This document shows, piece after piece, positions 2,870 to 22,063 of a stretch of DNA of 64,000 nucleotides; position 1 is the first letter of the stretch, and the number at the start of each line of letters is the position of its first letter. The DNA is taken from UHGV virus genome UHGV-2113617; one strand, given 5' to 3'. The position numbers and the translations under genes were made by a program. The notes below the pieces were generated by a model, which had not been told where the DNA came from, ran no database searches, and worked only from the letters and a program-made list of their open reading frames with translations. This DNA is from a virus.

Positions 2870-3085
2870 TTAAATTTTCCAGTTACCGTTTTCATCAATG
2901 AATTTAATCCAGTCATTTACTGACCACTTGGTCATATCGCCTTTTGGAGCAACATTTAAAGTGTATAATCCTTGTTTAAAAAGCATGCGTTTGATATTCA
3001 TATTTTCCTCAGCTGTAACGATAGCACTCGTTTGATTTACGCTTAGCAACTCGTTGAGAAGTATTATAATCAAAATCGTCATCAA
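2870..3085 (-). CDS. hypothetical small protein (start uncertain)
   Basis: 71-aa ORF, overlaps next ORF. Confidence 0.35.
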   Translation of the reverse strand: MMTILIIILLNELLSVNQTSAIVTAEENMNIKRMLFKQGLYTLNVAPKGDMTKWSVNDWIKFIDENGNWKI

Positions 3086-3347
3086 TGTAAACTGATTTTT
3101 TCAACTTTCTTACTTCACTACGTAATTGACGATTTAACTCATCTTTAACTTCTGAATCAATGCCTTTCATTCTACGCCATTTATCAGAGCGAAAAATGTT
3201 TTCAACCATATCTTTATGACTTACGCCATCAGGAGCTTTACGCTTTCCGAAATAGTCATAATCACGTACTTTTAAATCTTTACGACGATACGTTTTACCC
3301 ATGGAGTTTAATTTCCTTAGCAACTGAACTAAATACAGCACGATCAC
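3009..3347 (-). CDS. hypothetical basic protein
   Basis: 112-aa ORF rich in K/R. Confidence 0.5.
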   Translation of the reverse strand: MIVLYLVQLLRKLNSMGKTYRRKDLKVRDYDYFGKRKAPDGVSHKDMVENIFRSDKWRRMKGIDSEVKDELNRQLRSEVRKLKKSVYIDDDFDYNTSQRVAKRKSNECYRYS

Positions 3348-3477
3348 AAATCATCTGTTTATGTAACTTGAGTATAAGATAATAAACTTCAAAACCGTTT
3401 ACATAAGTAACACGAACAACATTACCATTAATAAAATAATATTGTCCCTTTTTAATTTCTTTATCAACCACAACCAT
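3295..3477 (-). CDS. hypothetical small protein
   Basis: 60-aa ORF just downstream of early promoter. Confidence 0.4.
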   Translation of the reverse strand: MVVVDKEIKKGQYYFINGNVVRVTYVNGFEVYYLILKLHKQMICDRAVFSSVAKEIKLHG

Positions 3478-3507
3478 ATCAAATCCTCAAAGGCAATTCA
3501 TATGTTA

Positions 3508-3537
3508 ATAATACCACAGTTTGAACTTCTTGTAAAC
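3508..3537 (-). promoter_or_regulatory. T4-type early promoter
   Basis: minus-strand GTTTAC, 18 bp, TATTAT. Confidence 0.55.
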
Positions 3538-3618
3538 AACTTTGTGAAAATTATTTTAGGGAACGATAAGAAGGGAACGATAGCTTAGAATGGTAATATA
3601 CAGAATGCGAGAAAGAAA

Positions 3619-3631
3619 GGCCCAGAGGGCC
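3619..3631 (-). terminator. hairpin terminator after nrdH-like gene
   Basis: GGCCC-TCT-GGGCC hairpin followed by T-rich run on minus strand. Confidence 0.4.
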
Positions 3632-3635
3632 CGTC

Positions 3636-3944
3636 TTAGTCTTCTATGATATCTCTATCATATCCAAGTGAAATGAGAGTTTCTTTGAAGTGTTTAATGT
3701 TCTTTTGTCTAGAATCATTGATGAAAATGACTGGATAACGAATGTTAAGAGATGTGAATCCAGCTCGTTTAGCAAGAGATACAATCAGTGGACGATCATA
3801 CTCAATCTTACCATTATTTGTAAGAACTTTATAGAAAGTAAAAGGAGCATTGAGCTCCTTTAGAAGTTTTGTAACTGATTGACATCCAGGACAACGACCT
3901 ACTTCATCTGGAATTCCATAGACTTCAATCTTGTTTTGTTTCAC
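3636..3944 (-). CDS. nrdH: NrdH-like glutaredoxin
   Basis: 102 aa with CPGC redox motif; sits next to nrdG. Confidence 0.7.
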   Translation of the reverse strand: MKQNKIEVYGIPDEVGRCPGCQSVTKLLKELNAPFTFYKVLTNNGKIEYDRPLIVSLAKRAGFTSLNIRYPVIFINDSRQKNIKHFKETLISLGYDRDIIED

Positions 3945-3946
3945 AA

Positions 3947-4183
3947 CTATTCCTTACTAAGAGCAGCATTCAGCTTGTTAGTAATTTTATCCAGACGCTC
4001 ATTGAACTCGCTAGAAGATAGTCCTTTTTCTGGAGAAATTAAGCTAATCACGAAAAATATAGCAATAAAAGGAATAAGAAAAATAGCTCCAACTGCCATA
4101 AACAAAAAGAATGTTACGGTTGTAAGAAAATCAGCTAAACCTTTACGAAATTTATACATATTTACCCTTAATTGATTAACCAA
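3947..4183 (-). CDS. small membrane protein
   Basis: 78 aa with a long hydrophobic stretch. Confidence 0.5.
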   Translation of the reverse strand: MVNQLRVNMYKFRKGLADFLTTVTFFLFMAVGAIFLIPFIAIFFVISLISPEKGLSSSEFNERLDKITNKLNAALSKE

Positions 4184-4273
4184 GCATTGATAAGTACTAA
4201 ACTATACTGCGAATAAAATTCTGGACCAAAATGAAAAATCATATCATTTATAGTATCAATAATATAATTCAAT

Positions 4274-4744
4274 TTAATCATGTTTCCACACCCCATCGGT
4301 ATTTGACCAAAGTCGCTGATTATCTGATCCTCGCCACAGCTTTTTGGTCGGAAGATTTTTCTCATACTTCCCATCAATAATAACATCAACATATTTAAGC
4401 ATTTCTAGTTGTTTAATATCTTCAAATTTATATCCTGTCCACAACCAAATGCTTTTATTTGGATAAAGATTTTTTACCGTTTGAACAATGCAATGAACAA
4501 CATCTCGGTTATCAGGATAAAGAGGGTCTCCTCCAGTTATAGTTAATCCTTCTATATAATCATTATTCAAACATTCAATTAATTGTTCTAGTGTTTCACC
4601 AGTGAATGGAACGCCATTTCTAGCATTCCATGTTGATTTATTATAACACCCTTCACATTTATGCAAACACCCCGTAACGAAAAGAACGACCCTGCATCCA
4701 GGGCCATTCACAAAATCACAGGGATAAAATCTATCGTAATTCAT
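4274..4744 (-). CDS. nrdG: anaerobic RNR activating enzyme (radical SAM)
   Basis: 156 aa, CLHKCEGC = CxxxCxxC cluster motif; overlaps nrdD stop. Confidence 0.9.
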   Translation of the reverse strand: MNYDRFYPCDFVNGPGCRVVLFVTGCLHKCEGCYNKSTWNARNGVPFTGETLEQLIECLNNDYIEGLTITGGDPLYPDNRDVVHCIVQTVKNLYPNKSIWLWTGYKFEDIKQLEMLKYVDVIIDGKYEKNLPTKKLWRGSDNQRLWSNTDGVWKHD

Positions 4745-6558
4745 TGGTGTTTAACCCTATGCATGATTTCTTTATTTTTGCCAAGATTAAATCCGCGTTC
4801 GTTCGGATTTCCCAAATAACCACAAGTTCTTCTTATTGTGTTCATCTTTTTAGGATCAGTTTCTCCACAAATAGAACAAACAAATCCGTTTTCAGTAGGA
4901 GTCATTTCATGGGTACTTCCACATGTAAAACATTTATCTACTGGCATATTAACACCAAAATAATCTAAATGTTGTGCAGCATAATCCCATACAGCCTCAA
5001 GACCTTTTAGGTTATTTTTCATATCAGGAAGTTCAACATAAGAAATGTGACCACCTGTCGCAATGAAATGATATGGGGCTTCGCGAGAAATCTTTTCAAA
5101 CGGAGTAATATTTTCTTCTACTGAAACGTGGAAACTGTTAGTGTACCAGCCTTTATCGGTAACATCTTTTACACTTCCATATTTTTCGGTATCAAGTTTA
5201 CAGAAGCGATAGCACAGGTTTTCTGCAGGAGTAGAATACAAACTAAAAGCAAATCCGGTTCTTTCAGTCCATTGTTTAAGATGAGTATTCATTTTAGTTA
5301 AAATTTCTTGTCCAATATCACGACCGACAAGAATATTCAATTCGTGAATACCAATGTATCCTAGAGACACTGAACTTCTACCGTTTTTAAATAACTCAAT
5401 TATATCGTCATCAGGTTTAAGACGAACCCCGAATGCACCTTCTTGGTAAAGAATAGGAGCAACAGTAGCTTTAACTCCTTTTAAGGAACTAATTCTACAC
5501 ATCAATGCTTCAAAACATAAATCCATTCGTTCGTTGAACAATTCGGCAAATTTCTGTTCATTGAACTGTGTTCCAATATAAGAATCTAACGCAATACGAG
5601 GAAGATTCAGTGTTACAACACCAAGATTATTACGTCCATCAAGAATTTCATTACCAGTCGAATCTTTCCATACGCCCAAGAAACTACGACAACCCATTGG
5701 AGAAACAGGAATAGATGAACCAGTGATAGCTTTATTGTTCTTAGCCGAAATGATGTCAGGATACATTCTTTTACTTGCACACTCTAGAGCAAGCTGTTTA
5801 ATATCATAGTTCGGATCGTCTTTATAAAGATTAACACCTTCTTCAACGAACATAACAAGTTTAGGGAAAATAGGAGTTATCCCATCACGACCGAGACCTT
5901 TAATACGATTTTTCAGAATTGCTTTCTGAATCATTCGTTCAGTCCAGTCAGTTCCCGTACCAAATGTAATTGTTACAAAAGGCGTCTGTCCGTTTGAACT
6001 AAAGAGAGTATTTACTTCATATTCATAAGCTTGGAACGCATCGTATACGTCTTTTTCTGTTTTAGATTGGGCATAATTCAATGCATCTGCGATTTGCCAT
6101 TTTTCCGCGTCCTCAATATGTTTCGCATAGGTGCGTTTAACATAAGGAGAAAGTACTTTATCTACATTCGCAAAAGTCGTTCCGCCATATTGATGAGAAG
6201 CAACCTGTGCAGTAATTTGTGCCATAATTGCAGTAGCAACGCCGATTGATTTAGGGGTTTCAATCTGTGCATTACCGAGCTTAAATCCGTTCTCAAGCAT
6301 TCCTTTTAAATCTACTAAACAACAATTAGTAAATGGAAGAGCAGGGGAATAATCAATATCGTGGAAATGGATAATTCCGCTTTCATGTGCTTTCATAATA
6401 AAAGACGGGACCATATTTTTGGCAATGTGTTTAGACACAATACCAGCCATAAGGTCCCGTTGAGTTGGAAAAACACGAGAATCTTTATTAGCATTCTCGT
6501 TTAAAAGGTCTTTATTAGTTTTATGAATTAATCCTTCAATTTCTTTTTCAATTGTCAT
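4741..6558 (-). CDS. nrdD: anaerobic ribonucleoside-triphosphate reductase, uninterrupted
   Basis: 605 aa, C-terminal glycyl-radical motif RTCGYLG and CxxC...CxxC zinc site; no intron in the reading frame. Confidence 0.95.
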   Translation of the reverse strand: MTIEKEIEGLIHKTNKDLLNENANKDSRVFPTQRDLMAGIVSKHIAKNMVPSFIMKAHESGIIHFHDIDYSPALPFTNCCLVDLKGMLENGFKLGNAQIETPKSIGVATAIMAQITAQVASHQYGGTTFANVDKVLSPYVKRTYAKHIEDAEKWQIADALNYAQSKTEKDVYDAFQAYEYEVNTLFSSNGQTPFVTITFGTGTDWTERMIQKAILKNRIKGLGRDGITPIFPKLVMFVEEGVNLYKDDPNYDIKQLALECASKRMYPDIISAKNNKAITGSSIPVSPMGCRSFLGVWKDSTGNEILDGRNNLGVVTLNLPRIALDSYIGTQFNEQKFAELFNERMDLCFEALMCRISSLKGVKATVAPILYQEGAFGVRLKPDDDIIELFKNGRSSVSLGYIGIHELNILVGRDIGQEILTKMNTHLKQWTERTGFAFSLYSTPAENLCYRFCKLDTEKYGSVKDVTDKGWYTNSFHVSVEENITPFEKISREAPYHFIATGGHISYVELPDMKNNLKGLEAVWDYAAQHLDYFGVNMPVDKCFTCGSTHEMTPTENGFVCSICGETDPKKMNTIRRTCGYLGNPNERGFNLGKNKEIMHRVKHQ

Positions 6559-7028
6559 TTTAAACTCTTTCTAAGCTGCTTCTTAAATGAAGCTATTAAT
6601 TGTGTTTTAGTGTCAGATTCATTATATTCAAATCCTCTTTGAAGCATCTCAGCCATCATTTCCTCTTTTCCTAAACGAGAAAATTCCTTTGATTTATCTC
6701 CAACAAAGTTAGGGTGAATATTATTTTGGGTGTAATCGGATTTTAAATAAGTAAGTAAATTTTCTAACCATTCAAGATAATCAACACCTTGTCCCTTTAA
6801 GCCAGAACGATTGAATTTATGCTTCATTTGACCTTCTGCAGCATTACAGAGATTACATAGCAACCCACGTACCTTTCCTGCTTTTGGTCCATTTAATTCA
6901 TGGTCATGGTCAAGGTGATTAGCTTGAACATCAGGATTTAGTTCTCGTTGGCAAATTAAGCATTTACCGTTTTGTGCATTATAAAATTTTTGTTTTTCTT
7001 CTTTGTATAATTTGCCAGTCAATAACAT
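6555..7028 (-). CDS. 49: endonuclease VII (Holliday junction resolvase)
   Basis: 157 aa, MLLTGKLYKEEKQKF..., CxxC and HLDHDH motifs; matches T4 gp49 as recalled. Confidence 0.85.
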   Translation of the reverse strand: MLLTGKLYKEEKQKFYNAQNGKCLICQRELNPDVQANHLDHDHELNGPKAGKVRGLLCNLCNAAEGQMKHKFNRSGLKGQGVDYLEWLENLLTYLKSDYTQNNIHPNFVGDKSKEFSRLGKEEMMAEMLQRGFEYNESDTKTQLIASFKKQLRKSLK

Positions 7029-7246
7029 AATAAAACCCTTACCTTGAATAGATAAGGGTATTTATTATTTTCAAGTATTGTAAAACATTCGATGCAATCG
7101 CTTATATTGTCGAATCATCTTTTTAGTAGGACGAGAATAAGTTCCTACACAAGTGGTCATATTAGGATCAGTAGGACTTCCTTTAATAAAAAGTTTCCAG
7201 ACTTTACCACCATTTAGCTTTTCAGTATAAACCAATTCAGTTTTCA

Positions 7247-7711
7247 TTAAAATGCTCGGTCAGAAAAAGAAATTTGAGTTTCAAGCCATTCAATATATTC
7301 TGCCGCAGCTTGCATCAAATTTCCTTCATAACCATCGTTGTTTTCTTGCGCAGCTAATTTAGCTAATGCATATGAAATGCGTTCACCTTGAAAAGCGGCT
7401 TTAGGTTTATGAATAGCTTGATCAACTCGTTCTACGACTTCTTCAATTTCGCCATTTTCTACTGATTCAGTATTCCACAAGCACCAATACGTAATTGGCT
7501 TATCGTAAATGTTAATAATCTTTCCATCAGAAAGTTCAATTTCAATAATTCCAGTATCAGGTTCTATATCATCTTCACATTCTTTTACAAGTTCACGAAC
7601 TTTAAAGACAATACCTGCACTAAGTTCAGGCCAGTAATTACACAGCCCTTTATCAGCACGATTAATTCTAAACCACTTATCTACTGTAATCATGTCCCAT
7701 CTCCATATCAA
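7247..7711 (-). CDS. hypothetical protein (occupies the T4 pin position)
   Basis: 154-aa ORF; identity to pin not verified. Confidence 0.5.
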   Translation of the reverse strand: MIWRWDMITVDKWFRINRADKGLCNYWPELSAGIVFKVRELVKECEDDIEPDTGIIEIELSDGKIINIYDKPITYWCLWNTESVENGEIEEVVERVDQAIHKPKAAFQGERISYALAKLAAQENNDGYEGNLMQAAAEYIEWLETQISFSDRAF

Positions 7712-7816
7712 TTATGTCATTTATTGTAGGTTCATTATATACTGTTTCTTCATCAGTGTAAACCGGTTCTTCCGGCTCTGGCTCTACTGTTTCCCATCTA
7801 GCCGCCCACCAGGGTT

Positions 7817-8137
7817 TTATAGCGTAATCCATTCTCGTATTGTCTGAGTTACTACACGTTCACGGGGCTCGACTAGTTCAACAGTCGGAACTGCATAATA
7901 CCAGTCAGAATGATAAGAACCTGAACGGCATTCATTTACGGAAACATGTACATTATGTTTTGGACTAAAATAAACACACTGACGATATTGACATTTACCG
8001 TCTTGCACCCAGTCTTCTATTTCGACAGGTTTAAGATAATCGGAAAAATCGAAATCATAGTTTTCTGAAAATGCATCATGGTCTTCAATGATTTCACTCA
8101 GAACTGCATCAACATCTAATTTATTTTCAATAGTCAT
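7817..8137 (-). CDS. hypothetical protein
   Basis: 106-aa ORF. Confidence 0.5.
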   Translation of the reverse strand: MTIENKLDVDAVLSEIIEDHDAFSENYDFDFSDYLKPVEIEDWVQDGKCQYRQCVYFSPKHNVHVSVNECRSGSYHSDWYYAVPTVELVEPRERVVTQTIREWITL

Positions 8138-14782: not shown

Positions 14783-15751
14783 TTATTTCAGAAGAGTAAC
14801 CTCAGCAATTTCTTCCCAACCGTTTTTGTCGGTCATAATAAAGTCAGCAAGATAAAGAGCAGTACGCAGTGAAACATTGCGTAAACGATTAACATTAACT
14901 TTCATCCATGATAATGCTTTATAAGTTTCTTCATCAGAAAGACCGCGCTTTTGCATCATGTCAGTTGAAAGAATAACATCTTCAACCCTGACCATAATTT
15001 CTTCATTAGTGTGAACACCCAAATCTAAATAAACTGAGCGGGACACTAATGCTTGTAAATGTGGAGCAAGTTTAGTACCACGGTCTAATTCGCGGTCAAT
15101 GTCAACGTTTGTGATAAAAACAATCGTTCCTTTAAATTCAAACTCACGGTCAATGCCTTTTTCTTCTAAGTAAGAAGATGCAGTGCTCCAGCAGACTTTA
15201 CGGGTCTCTCCAGTGTCCAGAGCAGCTTTTAGAAGATTAAGAATGTCCATATCAGAGAAAACATCCACATCATCAATCAAAAGGACAGAATTCTCTTCAC
15301 GATTATTCCAAAGCTGTTCATAAAGACCAATACCAGAGATTTTACCGTTAATGCTTTTATATTCAATGTATCCATTATCATTTGCTTTATTTAAAGCTTT
15401 ATCTAAAGAATACGTTTTACCAATACCTGCTGCGCCAGAGATAATCAATGAACGAATATTTCCATTAATAATACCATTCGTCATCATTCCCATAACATTA
15501 AATCTTTTATTAATGCGGGTTTTCATATCTTCATATGATTCTTTAACTTCTTCAACTTTTACACCATCATATGAAATATCTGATTTGTAAACCCAAACAC
15601 CGCGACGTTTACCGTCAATTTCAACAAAAACTTTACCATCTCCTTGTGCATCTACCGGAGCATTATCTGGGAACCATTCGCCTAAGAGCTCAAAAGTTCC
15701 AGAGATTTCTTTACCGAAGTAGATACCCTTATTGATAGTTACAGTTTTCAT
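14783..15751 (-). CDS. P-loop ATPase (AAA-like)
   Basis: 322 aa; Walker A GAAGIGKT, Walker B LLIDDVD. Confidence 0.7.
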   Translation of the reverse strand: MKTVTINKGIYFGKEISGTFELLGEWFPDNAPVDAQGDGKVFVEIDGKRRGVWVYKSDISYDGVKVEEVKESYEDMKTRINKRFNVMGMMTNGIINGNIRSLIISGAAGIGKTYSLDKALNKANDNGYIEYKSINGKISGIGLYEQLWNNREENSVLLIDDVDVFSDMDILNLLKAALDTGETRKVCWSTASSYLEEKGIDREFEFKGTIVFITNVDIDRELDRGTKLAPHLQALVSRSVYLDLGVHTNEEIMVRVEDVILSTDMMQKRGLSDEETYKALSWMKVNVNRLRNVSLRTALYLADFIMTDKNGWEEIAEVTLLK

Positions 15752-15787
15752 TTTATTCTCCAATTTCACATTTGTTTTGATAGGGTA

Positions 15788-15820: not shown

Positions 15821-16084
15821 TTATTTTAATGTTCGCCAAATTTTTACTGCTTCGCGACGAGATACTTCTACAGCTCCAAGTTCTACGGCTTTTTGGCGGT
15901 GGCGCGCGTGTAAGTCATAATGTTTAATGCGTTTATCTTGAAACCAAGAGCGTTTCATTCCTATTGCTTCTGCCATTTCATGAAGCTCTTCAATATCTCC
16001 ATCAGTGAACATATGACAATTTTTAGTTGGATGACCGCGAAGTTTCCATCCATGATTCATTAAAACATCTACGTAAACTGTCAT
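15821..16084 (-). CDS. small conserved protein (tentatively DUF4031-like)
   Basis: 87 aa, MTVYVD...CHM...HYDLHARHR; family assignment is from memory. Confidence 0.5.
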   Translation of the reverse strand: MTVYVDVLMNHGWKLRGHPTKNCHMFTDGDIEELHEMAEAIGMKRSWFQDKRIKHYDLHARHRQKAVELGAVEVSRREAVKIWRTLK

Positions 16085-16230
16085 TGATTCTGCTCCAAAT
16101 ATGTTTCTATAATTTTCTGAGCGAGATAAACTGCGTTATCTTCAGTTGCATCTTCTAAGAAATTTTCAAAACAAGCTGAAATCTCTTCTGTGTCAATCAA
16201 CTTTTTTACTTCAATTAACGTAGTTTTCAT
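16081..16230 (-). CDS. hypothetical small acidic protein
   Basis: 49 aa from MKTTLIEV; the longer ORF-track N-terminus MVLYNYQL is promoter read-through. Confidence 0.4.
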   Translation of the reverse strand: MKTTLIEVKKLIDTEEISACFENFLEDATEDNAVYLAQKIIETYLEQNQ

Positions 16231-16266
16231 TTTATTCCCCCAAATCCACATCAGTTGATAGTTGTA

Positions 16267-16296
16267 TAGTACCATAAAGCTTTATGCTTGTAAACA
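16267..16296 (-). promoter_or_regulatory. T4-type early promoter
   Basis: GTTTAC, 18 bp, TACTAT plus conserved leader. Confidence 0.6.
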
Positions 16297-16323
16297 ACTT
16301 TGTGACGTCATTTTAAACAAAAA

Positions 16324-16341
16324 GGGAGACCGAAGGCTCCC
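16324..16341 (-). terminator. rho-independent terminator
   Basis: GGGAGCC-TTCG-GTCTCCC hairpin followed by TTTTT on minus strand. Confidence 0.6.
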
Positions 16342-16343
16342 TA

Positions 16344-17357
16344 TCATTTATAATAACTTCGGTGGTTTTCAAGATATACCTCTTCAACGAACTTGTCCCA
16401 GAACTTCATGTCTACCTTATCAGGCATACCGTTCTTAGCTGCCTGGATGGCTAGGACTTCAACCAAATCAACAGTATCTTCAAGAAGTTCTTGAACTTCT
16501 TTAAATGGTAATTCACCGGCTTTAATCAGCTTAATGATAGAGGCTTCGCGCAATGGGAACGCCAAATCACCTGTTTGGTAGATTTCCATCAATTGATACC
16601 CTGCGCGATAAGCATGACTCAGAGCTTTCCAGTCAATACCTTCATTAGCTTCAGCCTTACGAGCACGTTCACCATATTCCGCATCGAGCTTATTCAGAGA
16701 TTGCTTGAGCTCGATTAAAGACAAGGTGGTTTGGTACTTACGTCCAAGAACAGTATAGAACGTTTGAGGACCTGTTTTCTCGTGGTTATGGAATACCCAT
16801 TCACAGAACTCGTTTTCAGGAAGCCGATGTTTAATATCTACAATTTTAGTACGACGTTGTCCTTGTGTTCCATCTTCTCGGTAATCAACCCACTGATCGG
16901 GGATTTGATTAACTACTTTCAATACATTACGCAATGCAGCCAAACGAGAACCCTTAACACCATATTTAGAAGCTTGCTTGCGCACATATCCTAAATAGGC
17001 TTTCATGTTAGTTGTATAAAACCGTGAACGATTGTCTTGGATAAATTTCCATACATCAGGCAAATCAGATTTAACTACTAGTTCAGGCGGAGTGTGAAGC
17101 ATATCCAATGCTACAGTTTCACCGTCTGCTGCTAATTTAAAGAAATACTTAAGACTGTATAGTTCATGGTCAATATCATCTTTAGTGTTTTTAGATGATG
17201 TGTTGTTAGTGTTTTTACTCATATGCTCTTTAACATTTCCGATAAGAATATCGCGAGCAGGAGGAACAAAGATTTCTTTAAAATCTACATCAGATTCTGG
17301 AGTAGAAGTTCCATAAAGATGACTACCAAAATAGCTTTTCATTACTGTTTTCATCAT
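16344..17357 (-). CDS. Pol-beta-superfamily nucleotidyltransferase-fold protein
   Basis: 337 aa; N-terminal GSHLYGTSTPESDVD (GS...DxD) plus downstream ALDML acidic strand. Confidence 0.6.
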   Translation of the reverse strand: MMKTVMKSYFGSHLYGTSTPESDVDFKEIFVPPARDILIGNVKEHMSKNTNNTSSKNTKDDIDHELYSLKYFFKLAADGETVALDMLHTPPELVVKSDLPDVWKFIQDNRSRFYTTNMKAYLGYVRKQASKYGVKGSRLAALRNVLKVVNQIPDQWVDYREDGTQGQRRTKIVDIKHRLPENEFCEWVFHNHEKTGPQTFYTVLGRKYQTTLSLIELKQSLNKLDAEYGERARKAEANEGIDWKALSHAYRAGYQLMEIYQTGDLAFPLREASIIKLIKAGELPFKEVQELLEDTVDLVEVLAIQAAKNGMPDKVDMKFWDKFVEEVYLENHRSYYK

Positions 17358-17815
17358 TCAGCCTTATATTCAATAACAGGACATACTTTAGCTTTACGAG
17401 CTTTTAAAAATTCGACGATAATAGATTTCTTGGGTTGAATAGGAGGTAAACCTTTATACGCCCTATCAATATTTTCTACATGTAAAGCATAATCCTTTTT
17501 CCATTTATAATCTTTATATTTTTCATGCAGTTGTGCAGGAATAACAAATGAACCAATAATAAGTAAAACAAGCAAAATGGCAAGTACAAATGCTGATGGA
17601 ATAAGAGTCCATAAACTACCAAAAATAAGCCATTTCTGTATGATTTCTGCACAGATGATAGTTAGACCTGCGAGTATAGTACATCCGAAAAAAGAAACGA
17701 AAAATGTAGGAATAACAATAGACCAAAAATACGCGCATAGTGTCTTAGGCCGTTTCCATTCATCATTAAACATTTTGAATAATTTATAGTGCCAAGAGCT
17801 TTCATTAATAATCAT
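17354..17815 (-). CDS. multi-pass membrane protein
   Basis: 153 aa with about four hydrophobic segments; stop overlaps NTase start. Confidence 0.6.
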   Translation of the reverse strand: MIINESSWHYKLFKMFNDEWKRPKTLCAYFWSIVIPTFFVSFFGCTILAGLTIICAEIIQKWLIFGSLWTLIPSAFVLAILLVLLIIGSFVIPAQLHEKYKDYKWKKDYALHVENIDRAYKGLPPIQPKKSIIVEFLKARKAKVCPVIEYKAE

Positions 17816-17817
17816 AA

Positions 17818-18339
17818 TTATCCTTTCATTGAAGGTGTAACAGTTGTTAAATACTTAATCATAGCTTCAGATTCTGATTTTGATAATGAAATTTCTTCAT
17901 TGTTTTGACGAATAGAAATAAAATCCGGATGACGGTCACGGCCAGCTTTCAAAACACACATATAAGTATCAGTTTCATCTTCAATATTTGAAATGATTGA
18001 AGCAGTTCCACATGAATGCGGTTTTTGATAAATCAATACGGCTTTTCTTCCACCGTTTGACTGTTCATAAACTTTTAACACATCAAACAAATCACTTCTT
18101 TTATCAATAGCTAAGATGTTGTTTTCATCTTCAATGTTAAATCCTTCGGATACTTCATAAAGTGTCACCCATAAATCGCCTATATCGATAGTAGCATTTA
18201 CTTTTCCATGACTTTCAAGAGCATGACAAATTTTCTTAATTTCGTCATAACTCATTTTAATATTATCATCTCCTTGAATAAGGAAGATGTCATTTTTAAA
18301 TTCAACACGAATTAAACCACTTTCACTTGAAATAAACAT
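17818..18339 (-). CDS. hypothetical protein, paralog of next gene
   Basis: 173 aa; shares GFNIE.E and C-terminal IRQ...YL..V.P.M with the 183-aa neighbour. Confidence 0.6.
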   Translation of the reverse strand: MFISSESGLIRVEFKNDIFLIQGDDNIKMSYDEIKKICHALESHGKVNATIDIGDLWVTLYEVSEGFNIEDENNILAIDKRSDLFDVLKVYEQSNGGRKAVLIYQKPHSCGTASIISNIEDETDTYMCVLKAGRDRHPDFISIRQNNEEISLSKSESEAMIKYLTTVTPSMKG

Positions 18340-18345
18340 ATTTCC

Positions 18346-18897
18346 TCACTTTGAAATCATAGTTGGAATGACAGAATCAAGATAAGTCTTTAATAAAACA
18401 GCTTCTTCTTTGTTTAATACAACAACATTAACATCATTTACCGATTGACGAATAGTTAAGACATCTCCCTCTTCATAGCATTTTGATACATTTAAAACAG
18501 TTTCATAATTTTGATTACAAGCGTTAGTAATAATAGCATTGCAATTTTTAAACCATTTTAAACCATGTTTTCTTTCATTAGAATAATAGAAATATTTAAT
18601 CTTAGCTATAAAATTATCCCAATTATTAATTGATAAGCATATTGACTCGCTTTCAATATTAAATCCTGGGCATAAAGAATAAAAATGAATTTTATGCTCA
18701 TCATTAATGCTTACAATTTTATCAGTGTATGGTTTTTCAATTTGGGTTAAATGAATAATTTCGCTAGGCGTAAAATATAGCATATCGTCTTCTTGCGTCA
18801 AACGATACATATTATTTACTTTTTCTATAGCCAATTCACCAAAAAGTGAACTAACTTCTAGTACTAATCGTTTCATATTAATCCTTTTTATTGGCAT
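18346..18897 (-). CDS. hypothetical protein, paralog of previous gene
   Basis: 183 aa. Confidence 0.6.
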   Translation of the reverse strand: MPIKRINMKRLVLEVSSLFGELAIEKVNNMYRLTQEDDMLYFTPSEIIHLTQIEKPYTDKIVSINDEHKIHFYSLCPGFNIESESICLSINNWDNFIAKIKYFYYSNERKHGLKWFKNCNAIITNACNQNYETVLNVSKCYEEGDVLTIRQSVNDVNVVVLNKEEAVLLKTYLDSVIPTMISK

Positions 18898-19156
18898 GAA
18901 TTTGTTCTAAAATTTTAGAGTATTCCTTTGTATCAGATTTACGTACAATCGATACACTATAAGGCATACTATCGGTGTCTTTTATAAAGCGTTCCAAATG
19001 ACACTCTAACAAAATTTCTGGGTTATAAATCGTGTACATCAAATTACCTGTTGCTCCACGATATTGACAGATTTCTACTGATTGAGCATCATTCCACAAT
19101 TTTGTTAAGACTAAATCGCCTACTTCTAATTTAGGAAAGCTCATGTTATTCACCAA
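18878..19156 (-). CDS. hypothetical protein
   Basis: 92-aa ORF. Confidence 0.45.
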   Translation of the reverse strand: MVNNMSFPKLEVGDLVLTKLWNDAQSVEICQYRGATGNLMYTIYNPEILLECHLERFIKDTDSMPYSVSIVRKSDTKEYSKILEQIHANKKD

Positions 19157-19331
19157 TTAAAGTTTCAATATAAGAATCAAGATTTACTTTAGCTTCTTCC
19201 ATAAGAGTTTTGTATTTAATCTTATTAGCATGTCCGGAGAAAGCTGATTCATCAATAACTGTTGATGCATGAACAGCTTTACTATACATCTCAATTAATT
19301 CTCTTAATTTAAAAGCCTGCTCACTTGTCAT
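19146..19331 (-). CDS. small helical protein, member of small-paralog set
   Basis: 61 aa, MTSEQAFKLRELIEMYSKAV. Confidence 0.5.
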   Translation of the reverse strand: MTSEQAFKLRELIEMYSKAVHASTVIDESAFSGHANKIKYKTLMEEAKVNLDSYIETLIGE

Positions 19332-19463
19332 TACATGCTCCTTTGAATAATATCAATAATGTTGTTCACCAGATTATAAGTAAACATTGGGTAATTATAT
19401 TGAATCATCACATACACAACAAACAAAACTTTCATTCTCTTCTCCTTGGCAGTTGGCAAGATT

Positions 19464-19493
19464 ACTATACCATAACCTTGCCAACTTGTAAAC
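19464..19493 (-). promoter_or_regulatory. T4-type early promoter
   Basis: GTTTAC, 18 bp, TATAGT. Confidence 0.55.
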
Positions 19494-19495
19494 CA

Positions 19496-19669
19496 TTAAA
19501 TGACGTTTTCAATAAAATTCTGGAGTTTTGTGTGAGCATCAACCATGATTTTCATTTCTTCCTTTGCAAAAGCTATGCCTCTTTCCCTAGAAGAACACTC
19601 ATAGTCAGAAACTGCATTAGCATATTCTTCAATTAGCTTCATTAAAAACATCTGCTTTTCAGTTTTCAT
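19496..19669 (-). CDS. small protein, member of small-paralog set (absent from ORF track, under 60 aa)
   Basis: 57 aa MKTEKQMFLMKLIEEYANAV...; ATG overlaps upstream gene end. Confidence 0.35.
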   Translation of the reverse strand: MKTEKQMFLMKLIEEYANAVSDYECSSRERGIAFAKEEMKIMVDAHTKLQNFIENVI

Positions 19670-19853
19670 TATTCCACCTAATCATTTCAAGATATTGAAC
19701 TAACTTAGCTTTAGATTTATCCAAATCTCTTTTAGCTGCTGCTATACCTTCGTATGAATATCCTTCACAATGCTCAACTGCTAATTGATATGAATCTATT
19801 TCAACATCACGTGCTAATTTAATGATTTTTTCAAACTGTTCGTGTGTCAGCAT
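19659..19853 (-). CDS. small protein, member of small-paralog set
   Basis: 64 aa MLTHEQFEKIIKLARDVE. Confidence 0.5.
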   Translation of the reverse strand: MLTHEQFEKIIKLARDVEIDSYQLAVEHCEGYSYEGIAAAKRDLDKSKAKLVQYLEMIRWNNEN

Positions 19854-19855
19854 AC

Positions 19856-20059
19856 TTAAACTCTCGTATTGTGATCGATAATTTCATCAAGAAACATATC
19901 TAAAGCTTCTACAGCATTATCAACTTTAGCTTCAAATTCTTCAATACCTTTATTTGCAATGCCTGCCGAAAACCAAGCAAAGTCACTAAGTTCCTCATCT
20001 GCTTTGCGAATTAAAGCTACCAATTCTTTAATTTTATCTGCTTGTTCAATACTAATCAT
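19856..20059 (-). CDS. small protein, member of small-paralog set
   Basis: 67 aa from [14 protein letters not shown]; TAATG overlap with upstream gene. Confidence 0.5.
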   Translation of the reverse strand: MISIEQADKIKELVALIRKADEELSDFAWFSAGIANKGIEEFEAKVDNAVEALDMFLDEIIDHNTRV

Positions 20060-20247
20060 TATTCCACCACATATGAAAGAGAGAATATTGCACACGCCAT
20101 ATGAGTTGCAGCTTCATCACACATATCATAACGTTTCTTAAGAAGTTCTTCAAGTTCTTCACTAGTAACATCATCCATGTTGACGAAAAAATCACCATTA
20201 ATGATGACGTAGATATTTCCTTCTTGATTAAGTGCTTCAATTTTCAT
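20059..20247 (-). CDS. hypothetical small acidic protein
   Basis: 62 aa from MKIEAL, GAGGAGAA RBS. Confidence 0.5.
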
Positions 20248-20275
20248 GATGTTCTCCTCTTTATCCGATAGTTGT

Positions 20276-20305
20276 ATAGTATCACAGCTCAAATGGAAAG
20301 TAAAC
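20276..20305 (-). promoter_or_regulatory. T4-type early promoter
   Basis: GTTTAC, 18 bp, TACTAT. Confidence 0.6.
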
Positions 20306-20321
20306 CGGTAAAATGAAAAAA

Positions 20322-20337
20322 GTCTCCCGAAGGAGAC
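20322..20337 (-). terminator. rho-independent terminator
   Basis: GTCTCC-TTCG-GGAGAC then TTTTTT on minus strand. Confidence 0.6.
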
Positions 20338-20342
20338 TAATG

Positions 20343-20729
20343 CTATTCGAGGGAAAGAAGATACTTACTTTGGTAAAACATTCCAGTAATATCATCTATC
20401 GTGCTTTGAATGGCTGGAGGCATTTCTTTGTAAATGCTGTTAGATTGGTCTAGTATACGATCAATCATTTTAATTGTGTCGGTAGGAAGTTTACTAGCAT
20501 CTGGAATTGAAGGTGTGTATTTTCTACCAGAATACCCCAAATATTGCTCACCAAATTTATCAATCAAATCTGGCAACTCAGAGAAAATAAAATCGTATGC
20601 TTTGTGTCTAGCATAACTTTTAGTTTCAAAATGCGCAGAATGAAAATAAGCTTGTGCAGCCATTAATAAACCTAAGTATTCATCTGCCTTTGAAGGTTTT
20701 CCACTTTGTGAAAAGTCGCTGAATTTCAT
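20343..20729 (-). CDS. hypothetical protein (T4 rI.-1 position)
   Basis: 128-aa ORF overlapping rI stop. Confidence 0.6.
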
Positions 20730-21877: not shown

Positions 21878-22063
21878 TTAAAGCGTATTCACATAAGCTA
21901 TTAATTCGTTTTCTTTCTTATCAAACCGATCAGCAAATTCTTCCTGGTGTTCGGGAGATAGCGGGCCGTATTCATCATAAAAGGTGTTTGCTTCTGTATG
22001 CTCATCTAGAAGTTCATGGATAAGCTCAAACAATTTATCTTTTTGTTCTTTACTCAGACTCAT
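21878..22063 (-). CDS. hypothetical small protein
   Basis: 61-aa ORF. Confidence 0.5.
   Translation of the reverse strand: MSLSKEQKDKLFELIHELLDEHTEANTFYDEYGPLSPEHQEEFADRFDKKENELIAYVNTL

Follow-up and report, generated by a model that had tools for sequence, protein, structure and literature searches.

Are two neighbouring small genes of a T4-like phage copies of one another, and if so, what kind of protein do they encode? The question is raised by the virus genome UHGV-2113617, of which a stretch of 64,000 nucleotides (nt), hereafter the window, was analysed. A preliminary description had singled out two adjacent open reading frames (ORFs) of 173 and 183 amino acids (aa), lying directly upstream of the genes for a membrane protein and a nucleotidyltransferase, and had proposed that the two arose by duplication and divergence. 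Both ORFs are indeed present, on the minus strand and in the same orientation as the two downstream genes, and we confirm by sequence comparison that they are genuine, anciently diverged copies of the MobD.1 (T4_y05I) family. The window itself belongs to a T4-like phage of the genus Tequatrovirus and is 99.8% identical to the phages ZCEC14 and P8. The 1.9 kilobases (kb) around the pair are 99.7-99.8% identical to ZCEC14, vB_EcoM_P8 and vB_EcoM_BMB16, and 94-95% identical to dozens more Escherichia, Shigella and Yersinia phage records among those listed.

A pairwise alignment joins the two proteins from end to end (BLASTP; 24% identity and 46% positives over 174 columns, E=1e-7). Their Smith-Waterman score of 107 compares with a mean of 32.1 for shuffled sequences (standard deviation 5.4, maximum 70, z=14), and none of the 2000 shuffles reached it. 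The N-terminal halves (z=9.2) and the C-terminal halves (z=6.4) are each significantly similar alone, and the crossed comparisons of an N-terminal half of one protein with the C-terminal half of the other were not significant. Among the remaining window ORFs of 100 aa or more, none exceeds a score of 50 against one of the two proteins; the shuffles and this window-wide background rule out a chance similarity. Both proteins match PF24449 (T4_y05I_N, 99 positions, gathering cutoff 24.9 bits), the 173-aa protein with 112.5 bits over model positions 2-98 and the 183-aa protein with 136.7 bits over positions 1-98, as well as PF24448 (T4_y05I_C, 69 positions, cutoff 27 bits), with 78.3 and 63.8 bits, respectively, each over positions 2-69. 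Both also match phrog_1502 over the full length. The full-length homology and the shared two-domain architecture support the proposed paralogy.

At the level of single motifs and sizes, the preliminary description needs some adjustment. The motif GFNIE(D/S)E...L.I is exact in both proteins. Further downstream, I(S/T)IRQ was described for both, and we find that one protein has ISIRQ, the other LTIRQ; in the adjoining EA..(K)YL, the EA is out of register between the proteins in both alignments, whereas YL..V.P(S/T)M holds. The C-terminal signature conserved across the family is K.E....YL..V.P(S/T)M. The 183 aa are correct for the longest reading frame of the upstream gene. Its product, however, probably comprises 176 aa, because a good Shine-Dalgarno sequence, AAGGA, lies 6 nt before the ATG at M8 (18876) and none precedes the ATG at 18897; the annotation of P8 also gives 176 aa.

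Which of the two copies corresponds to MobD.1 of T4? By identity and position, the T4 mobD.1 ortholog is the upstream gene. Its product is 81-86% identical to T4 MobD.1 (86% in the N-domain and 77% in the C-domain), the DNA identity is 88.9% over 18321-18874, and the gene occupies the same place in the locus, between the mobD.2-type small genes and nrdC.11. The 173-aa protein shares only 23-34% identity with MobD.1 and falls into a separate clade; its gene is, on these sequence grounds, a MobD.1 paralog without a T4 counterpart, not an ortholog. In a neighbour-joining tree with MobD.1 orthologs from two genera (two Tequatrovirus allele classes and the Dhakavirus type), the paralog clade was split from all orthologs in 200 of 200 bootstraps, which argues for an old duplication or for import from a distant relative. 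The two allele classes of the upstream gene in Tequatrovirus are about 85% and about 43% identical to the window copy. Divergence between alleles is faster in the N-domain than in the C-domain, with identities of 38% versus 77% and of 40% versus 51%.

In T4, an HNH homing-endonuclease gene, mobD, stands exactly in place of window positions 17359-18320, which hold the paralog and the membrane gene. The replacement covers 6451-7258 of the compared T4 sequence, and homology resumes at both flanks. The window accordingly represents a mobD-less allele of the locus and may contain the target site of MobD. Since mobD (at least 95% identity) occurs in 47 phage records and the 173-aa paralog (at least 80% identity) in about 434, T4 represents the minority state; at an identity of at least 90%, a full-length paralog ORF is found in about 430 records. 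A second indel adjoins the pair: window positions 18875-19319 (445 nt), with a Phage_tudor gene and one DUF7438 gene, are missing from T4, where the flanks abut almost directly (7815-7818 of the compared T4 sequence).

How widely is the family distributed? Word-based homolog searches gave almost only near-identical T-even proteins, and the breadth of the family was therefore taken from an exhaustive search of 1.84 billion cluster representatives with the family profile. It returned only 21 hits, comprising five full-length types, several fragments and seven free-standing proteins of 67-87 aa that consist of the C-domain alone. All relatives with a traced source came from T-even phages, and among annotated phages the family is confined to Tevenvirinae. 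The full-length form is found in Tequatrovirus and Dhakavirus, the C-domain-only form in Kagamiyamavirus, Moonvirus and relatives.

Is the paralog a functional gene? Among intact orthologs its ratio of nonsynonymous to synonymous substitution rates (dN/dS) is 0.09-0.2, by which measure it is under purifying selection and functional; we rejected the idea of a pseudogene on this ratio. For the membrane gene, dN/dS is 0.12-0.26. Natural variants of the locus nevertheless occur. Six metagenomic contigs carry a hybrid gene that joins the N-domain of MobD.1 to the C-domain of the paralog. No other y05I gene accompanies the hybrid, which lies between those for the tudor and membrane proteins (about 5001-5540 of one contig). 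It corresponds at the DNA level to an in-frame deletion of about 532 nt equivalent to window 17980-18511, of the kind that unequal recombination would leave, and shows that the two copies recombine as repeats. In T2 (2940-4481 of the compared sequence, two independent records), frameshifts break mobD.1, its paralog and the beginning of the membrane gene but spare NrdC.11, which points to co-degeneration of three neighbouring genes in this laboratory phage. In P8 (4403-4924; 99.7% identical to the window in this region), the paralog is interrupted by a stop at W57 and annotated as two small coding sequences; either a true nonsense mutation or an error of sequencing may account for the stop. In phage TadeuszReichstein, the paralog and membrane proteins are both truncated. 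A metagenomic protein (P0037) begins with residues 1-51 of MobD.1 and continues as the C-terminal half of NrdC.11. Unless it is an assembly artefact, it implies a deletion that removed the remainder of mobD.1, the paralog and the membrane gene as well as half of the nucleotidyltransferase gene. In T4, the nrdC.11-mobD.3 block can be deleted (PMC9825161). Together, the variants and this deletability indicate dispensable, modular accessory genes whose fate is tied to the membrane gene.

What fold might the proteins adopt? An AlphaFold2 model of the 173-aa protein, built on a 22-sequence alignment, has a mean predicted local distance difference test score (pLDDT) of 83. It consists of three beta(3-5)-alpha units, with strands at 10-29, 49-78 and 101-152 followed by helices at 31-43, 81-94 and 154-167, respectively. 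Repeats 1 and 3 are related in sequence as well (hhalign probability 88%, E=3e-6, with reciprocal cross-hits of their hidden Markov models, HMMs); for repeat 2, no sequence similarity to repeat 1 or 3 was detected. In a fold search, the top match of the C-domain was the N-domain of KhtT (7.1), which we keep as a bare structural match. It was followed by Pur-alpha repeat III and Borrelia Pur-alpha (5.9 each), Sub1/PC4 (5.4-5.7), YdbC (4.7) and the PC4 homolog of phage T5 (4.3). A search of viral folds in BFVD returned only the same family and weak Bacillus-phage matches. By predicted structure, though not by sequence, the proteins fall within the PC4-like/PUR/Whirly superfamily, and for both the predicted fold has the three-repeat design of eukaryotic Pur-alpha. 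Single beta-beta-beta-beta-alpha repeats build a domain via intermolecular dimerisation, and Pur-alpha is the only known protein that joins intramolecular (type I) and intermolecular (type II) PC4-like domains, with Pur-alpha/Pur-beta heterodimers through repeat III being formally possible (PMC7549692). Placed in this scheme, the modelled phage proteins would comprise a type I PC4-like domain followed by a type II repeat in need of a partner chain.

Are the two genes regularly linked to the membrane gene? We surveyed the gene order with custom HMMs on the ORFs of 22 sequences from four T-even genera, a synteny comparison that the preliminary description had suggested, and recovered a conserved order across all four: rI.-1, variable small genes, often Phage_tudor, one or two y05I genes, a membrane-protein homolog, zero to three genes, and the NrdC.11 nucleotidyltransferase. 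A y05I_C-bearing ORF directly precedes the membrane-protein homolog in 20 of the 22 sequences (in P8 and T2 only as fragments). The two exceptions are T4, which has no membrane gene, and one sequence (L015) with no detected y05I ORF. Where both are found, the membrane gene always lies directly downstream of the last y05I_C gene, and in Dhakavirus it adjoins a single-copy mobD.1. Homologs of the membrane protein were found in T-even phages only. In Moonvirus (Citrobacter phage Moon 2992-3448, and two other sequences), two tandem free-standing y05I_C genes of 78 and 76-77 aa stand directly before the membrane-protein homolog, which makes them another, independent pair within the family. A further ORF of 72-78 aa lies just upstream of the single mobD.1 in Dhakavirus (JS10 3287-3505; 4368-4604 in two other sequences); it weakly matches the hairpin-helix motif of repeats 1 and 3 (E=8e-5 to 1e-3) and may be a diverged single-repeat relative.

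The preliminary description had also suggested that the pair, the membrane gene and the nucleotidyltransferase gene may form one unit. The evidence is consistent with this without proving it. The gaps within the window block are short (-11, 1, 6, 2 and -4 nt, the nucleotidyltransferase start overlapping the membrane-gene stop in ATGA), a single promoter-like site lies upstream and a single terminator-like hairpin at the end, and the adjacency recurs as described. On the other side, T4 retains mobD.1 and nrdC.11 without the membrane gene, one to three genes separate the membrane and nucleotidyltransferase genes in other genera, and tight packing is common to all T4 early genes. The features of the locus are collected in Table 1.

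Table 1. Features of the MobD.1 pair and its surroundings in the window
Feature	Position	Strand	Basis and remarks
mobD.1 ortholog	18346..18897	-	Longest ORF 183 aa; probable start ATG 18876 (176 aa); UniProt Y05I_BPT4 family
mobD.1 ortholog, domains	N ~18571-18876, C ~18349-18570	-	Pfam PF24449 + PF24448
MobD.1 paralog, 173 aa, not in T4	17818..18339	-	
Paralog N-domain, residues 1-98, two predicted beta-sheet/helix repeats	18046-18339	-	
Paralog C-domain, residues 99-173, one predicted repeat	17821-18045	-	
Small membrane protein, 153 aa, pI (isoelectric point) 9.3, conserved cytoplasmic ends	17354..17815	-	phrog_944 'membrane protein'
NrdC.11 ortholog, RlaP-type (pol-beta superfamily) nucleotidyltransferase	16344..17357	-	Pfam PF10127 RlaP E=3.8e-13; phrog_388; T4 annotation
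Phage_tudor domain protein, 88 aa from ATG	18878..19144	-	Pfam PF24144 E=3.5e-40
DUF7438 small protein, 61 aa, first gene past promoter-like site	19146..19331	-	Pfam PF24219 E=5.4e-15
Sigma-70/T4-early-like promoter candidate (TTTACA, 17 nt, TG-TATAGT)	19464..19492	-	Consensus match only
Intrinsic-terminator-like hairpin + T-run, directly after nucleotidyltransferase stop codon	16323..16342	-	Consensus match only

The pair is part of a minus-strand gene run in T4 order: tk, rI.1, rI, rI.-1, the small 'mobD.x' genes, the two ORFs, the membrane protein, NrdC.11 and NrdC.10. The Phage_tudor gene lies directly upstream of the y05I genes in most loci. The promoter candidate, read from 19492 to 19464, sits in the sole sizeable gap (164 nt) upstream of the gene block, and a scan of 16000-20600 gave no complete match to MotA-box middle promoters or to TATAAATA late promoters. 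G+C-rich hairpins with T-runs on the minus strand, one after rI.-1 (20321-20338) and the other the one listed after NrdC.11, bracket a block of about 4 kb with 10-11 tightly packed small genes. Five small ORFs of 57-79 aa, all matching Pfam DUF7438 (the listed one and those at 19496-19669, 19659-19853, 19856-20095 and 21878-22063), form an array of short paralogs flanking the rI/tk genes; one is labelled 'helicase loader' in some records. Further downstream, the NrdC.10 ortholog (14783-15769) has sub-threshold matches to AAA/STAND NTPase families (nSTAND3, AAA_16), and a DUF4031 protein (15821-16084) is encoded between NrdC.10 and NrdC.11, where T4 has no annotated gene.

What, then, might the pair do? 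We lean, if somewhat cautiously, towards the interpretation that the two genes encode dimeric PC4-like/PUR-like early accessory proteins that have single-stranded nucleic acid as their target and work jointly with the downstream membrane protein. They would be non-essential early proteins of three PC4-like/PUR-like beta-sheet-plus-helix repeats. Repeats 1 and 2 would pack into an intramolecular type I domain, the variable part that would bear the specificity, and the lone type II repeat 3 would complete its fold only by pairing with a second copy. If repeat 3 needs a partner as do, by analogy, Pur-alpha repeat III, Borrelia Pur-alpha and PC4, the proteins should act as dimers; we infer dimerisation via this repeat because the single-repeat structural neighbours are all dimeric and because free-standing and tandem single-repeat genes exist in the family. 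When co-expressed, the paralogs would form homodimers, heterodimers or both. The dimer would most likely bind RNA or single-stranded DNA (ssDNA). Its probable partner would be the small membrane protein encoded directly downstream, with the RlaP-type nucleotidyltransferase NrdC.11 as a possible second one. The Pfam curators label the family 'putative transcription factor', and one depositor chose 'putative SSB protein' (SSB, single-stranded-DNA-binding); the predicted PC4/PUR-like fold probably accounts for both labels. A link to the membrane gene is suggested by the adjacency in 20 of 22 sequences, by the joint loss of paralog and membrane gene in T4, by their joint frameshifting in T2 and joint truncation in TadeuszReichstein, and by the pairing of acidic y05I proteins (pI 4.2-5.8) with a basic membrane protein.

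Several observations weigh against this interpretation. No Pfam match to the PurA, Whirly or PC4 families was obtained at E<=1, and a search of all PDB sequences with the family profile returned nothing at E<=10. The whole fold is predicted, and the C-domain modelled alone reaches a pLDDT of 73, a moderate confidence. Proteins that bind nucleic acid are not usually so acidic. Heterodimerisation cannot be a requirement, since only one copy is present in many phages, and MobD.1 persists in T4 without the membrane protein. The conservation of gene order among T-even phages reflects in part simple inheritance. Finally, our literature search found no experiment or paper on the function of the MobD.1 family: 'MobD.1' appeared only as an insertion-site label in one review, and nothing relevant came up under 'y05I', the accessions in Pfam and PHROG, or RB32ORF097c.

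Could the same fold serve a protein ligand instead? The proteins might be acidic adaptors or inhibitors, as in the model of the Whirly-fold cell-division proteins SsgA/SsgB, whose recruitment is to partners in the membrane, nucleic-acid mimics or anti-defence factors, with the variable N-domain targeting a host protein and the C-domain docking on the downstream membrane protein. We consider this possible, though on the unlikely side. The low pI, together with a net charge of -3 to -20 for most of the family, and the basic membrane partner would suit such a role, as would the hypervariable alleles of the upstream gene at one locus with their faster N-domain, the repeated loss or pseudogenisation in the laboratory phages T4, T2 and P8, the dispensability of the genes and the restriction of the family to T-even phages of enterobacteria. 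PADLOC, however, returned no hit for the two paralogs, nor for the membrane and tudor proteins, and we rejected membership of a known defence or anti-defence system on this result. The curators' transcription-factor label also speaks for another role, and an overall acidity is compatible with a basic binding face. Indeed, many SSB-type proteins are acidic overall.

A second alternative concerns the origin of the pair. Instead of arising by local tandem duplication, the 173-aa gene could have been imported with the membrane gene from another T-even lineage and placed beside the resident mobD.1. The paralog is about equidistant (23-33% identity) from every MobD.1 lineage and forms the fully supported separate clade described above, and the region is a hot spot of cassette exchange, as seen in the T4 mobD replacement, the presence or absence of the tudor/DUF7438 segment and the two MobD.1 allele classes. 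However, we found no phage with the 173-aa type as sole full-length copy lacking a neighbouring MobD.1-type gene or hybrid. The membrane gene stands beside the single-copy mobD.1 of Dhakavirus, so that its arrival with the paralog is unnecessary, and an ancient duplication followed by loss fits the data equally well. We regard the import as unlikely.

More doubtful still is a bolder version of the single-stranded nucleic-acid reading, which would make the MobD.1 family the viral equivalent of Pur-alpha. In it, a paralog heterodimer, joined via the third repeats and tethered to the inner membrane by the small protein encoded downstream, would present RNA or ssDNA to NrdC.11, for instance for RNA repair or tailing or for countering a host nuclease defence. 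That one copy is a redundant, decaying duplicate without a function of its own we think very improbable: the premature stop in P8, the frameshifts in T2, the absence from T4 and the collapse into a hybrid in some wild phages would fit decay, but it is disfavoured by the selection signal among intact orthologs, the full-length ORF kept in about 430 records, a good Shine-Dalgarno sequence before the paralog and two domains far above their Pfam thresholds.

How do the two proteins compare with the closest known systems? The nearest is T4 MobD.1 (Y05I_BPT4), to which the upstream gene corresponds at the same position; the downstream copy has the same two domains over the full length but differs by its low identity of only 24-32%, its own clade and the HNH gene found in its T4 place. 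With Pur-alpha (PURA), the modelled proteins share the combination of a type I domain from repeats I-II and a type II repeat III. They differ in being acidic, in lacking detectable PurA sequence similarity and the known nucleic-acid-contacting motifs, and in having five strands instead of four in the modelled repeat 3; they are also about half the length of PURA. The single-repeat PC4-like proteins (human PC4, fungal Sub1, Borrelia Bpur, Lactococcus YdbC and the phage T5 PC4 homolog) are structural neighbours of the modelled C-domain. No sequence relationship was found to the Whirly proteins (plant p24/StWhy2, trypanosome MRP1/2) or to SsgA/SsgB. Whirly/MRP tetramers assemble via extra helices, which the phage proteins lack.

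Public records of this region contain several wrongly propagated names. The label 'molybdopterin-guanine dinucleotide biosynthesis protein MobD' is given to MobD.x proteins, 'thioredoxin' to NrdC.x proteins, 'virion structural protein' to the tudor protein and 'starvation-inducible transcriptional regulator' to rI.-1. No NCBIfam model matches the paralogs, the membrane protein or the tudor protein. The practical value of our analysis lies mainly in annotation, as the molybdopterin label that these genes have in RefSeq is wrong.

In summary, MobD.1 is one of more than 100 T-even early genes without known function, and its family, already catalogued and present in hundreds of sequenced phages, is not new as an object. 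What the analysis adds is the predicted fold assignment with its Pur-alpha-like domain logic, the constant association with one membrane gene, and the variants in which the copies have recombined or degraded. The family occurs in single, double, hybrid or C-domain-only versions, and the T4 laboratory strain is the exception at this locus, where mobD replaced the paralog and the membrane gene that about 430 relatives have kept.

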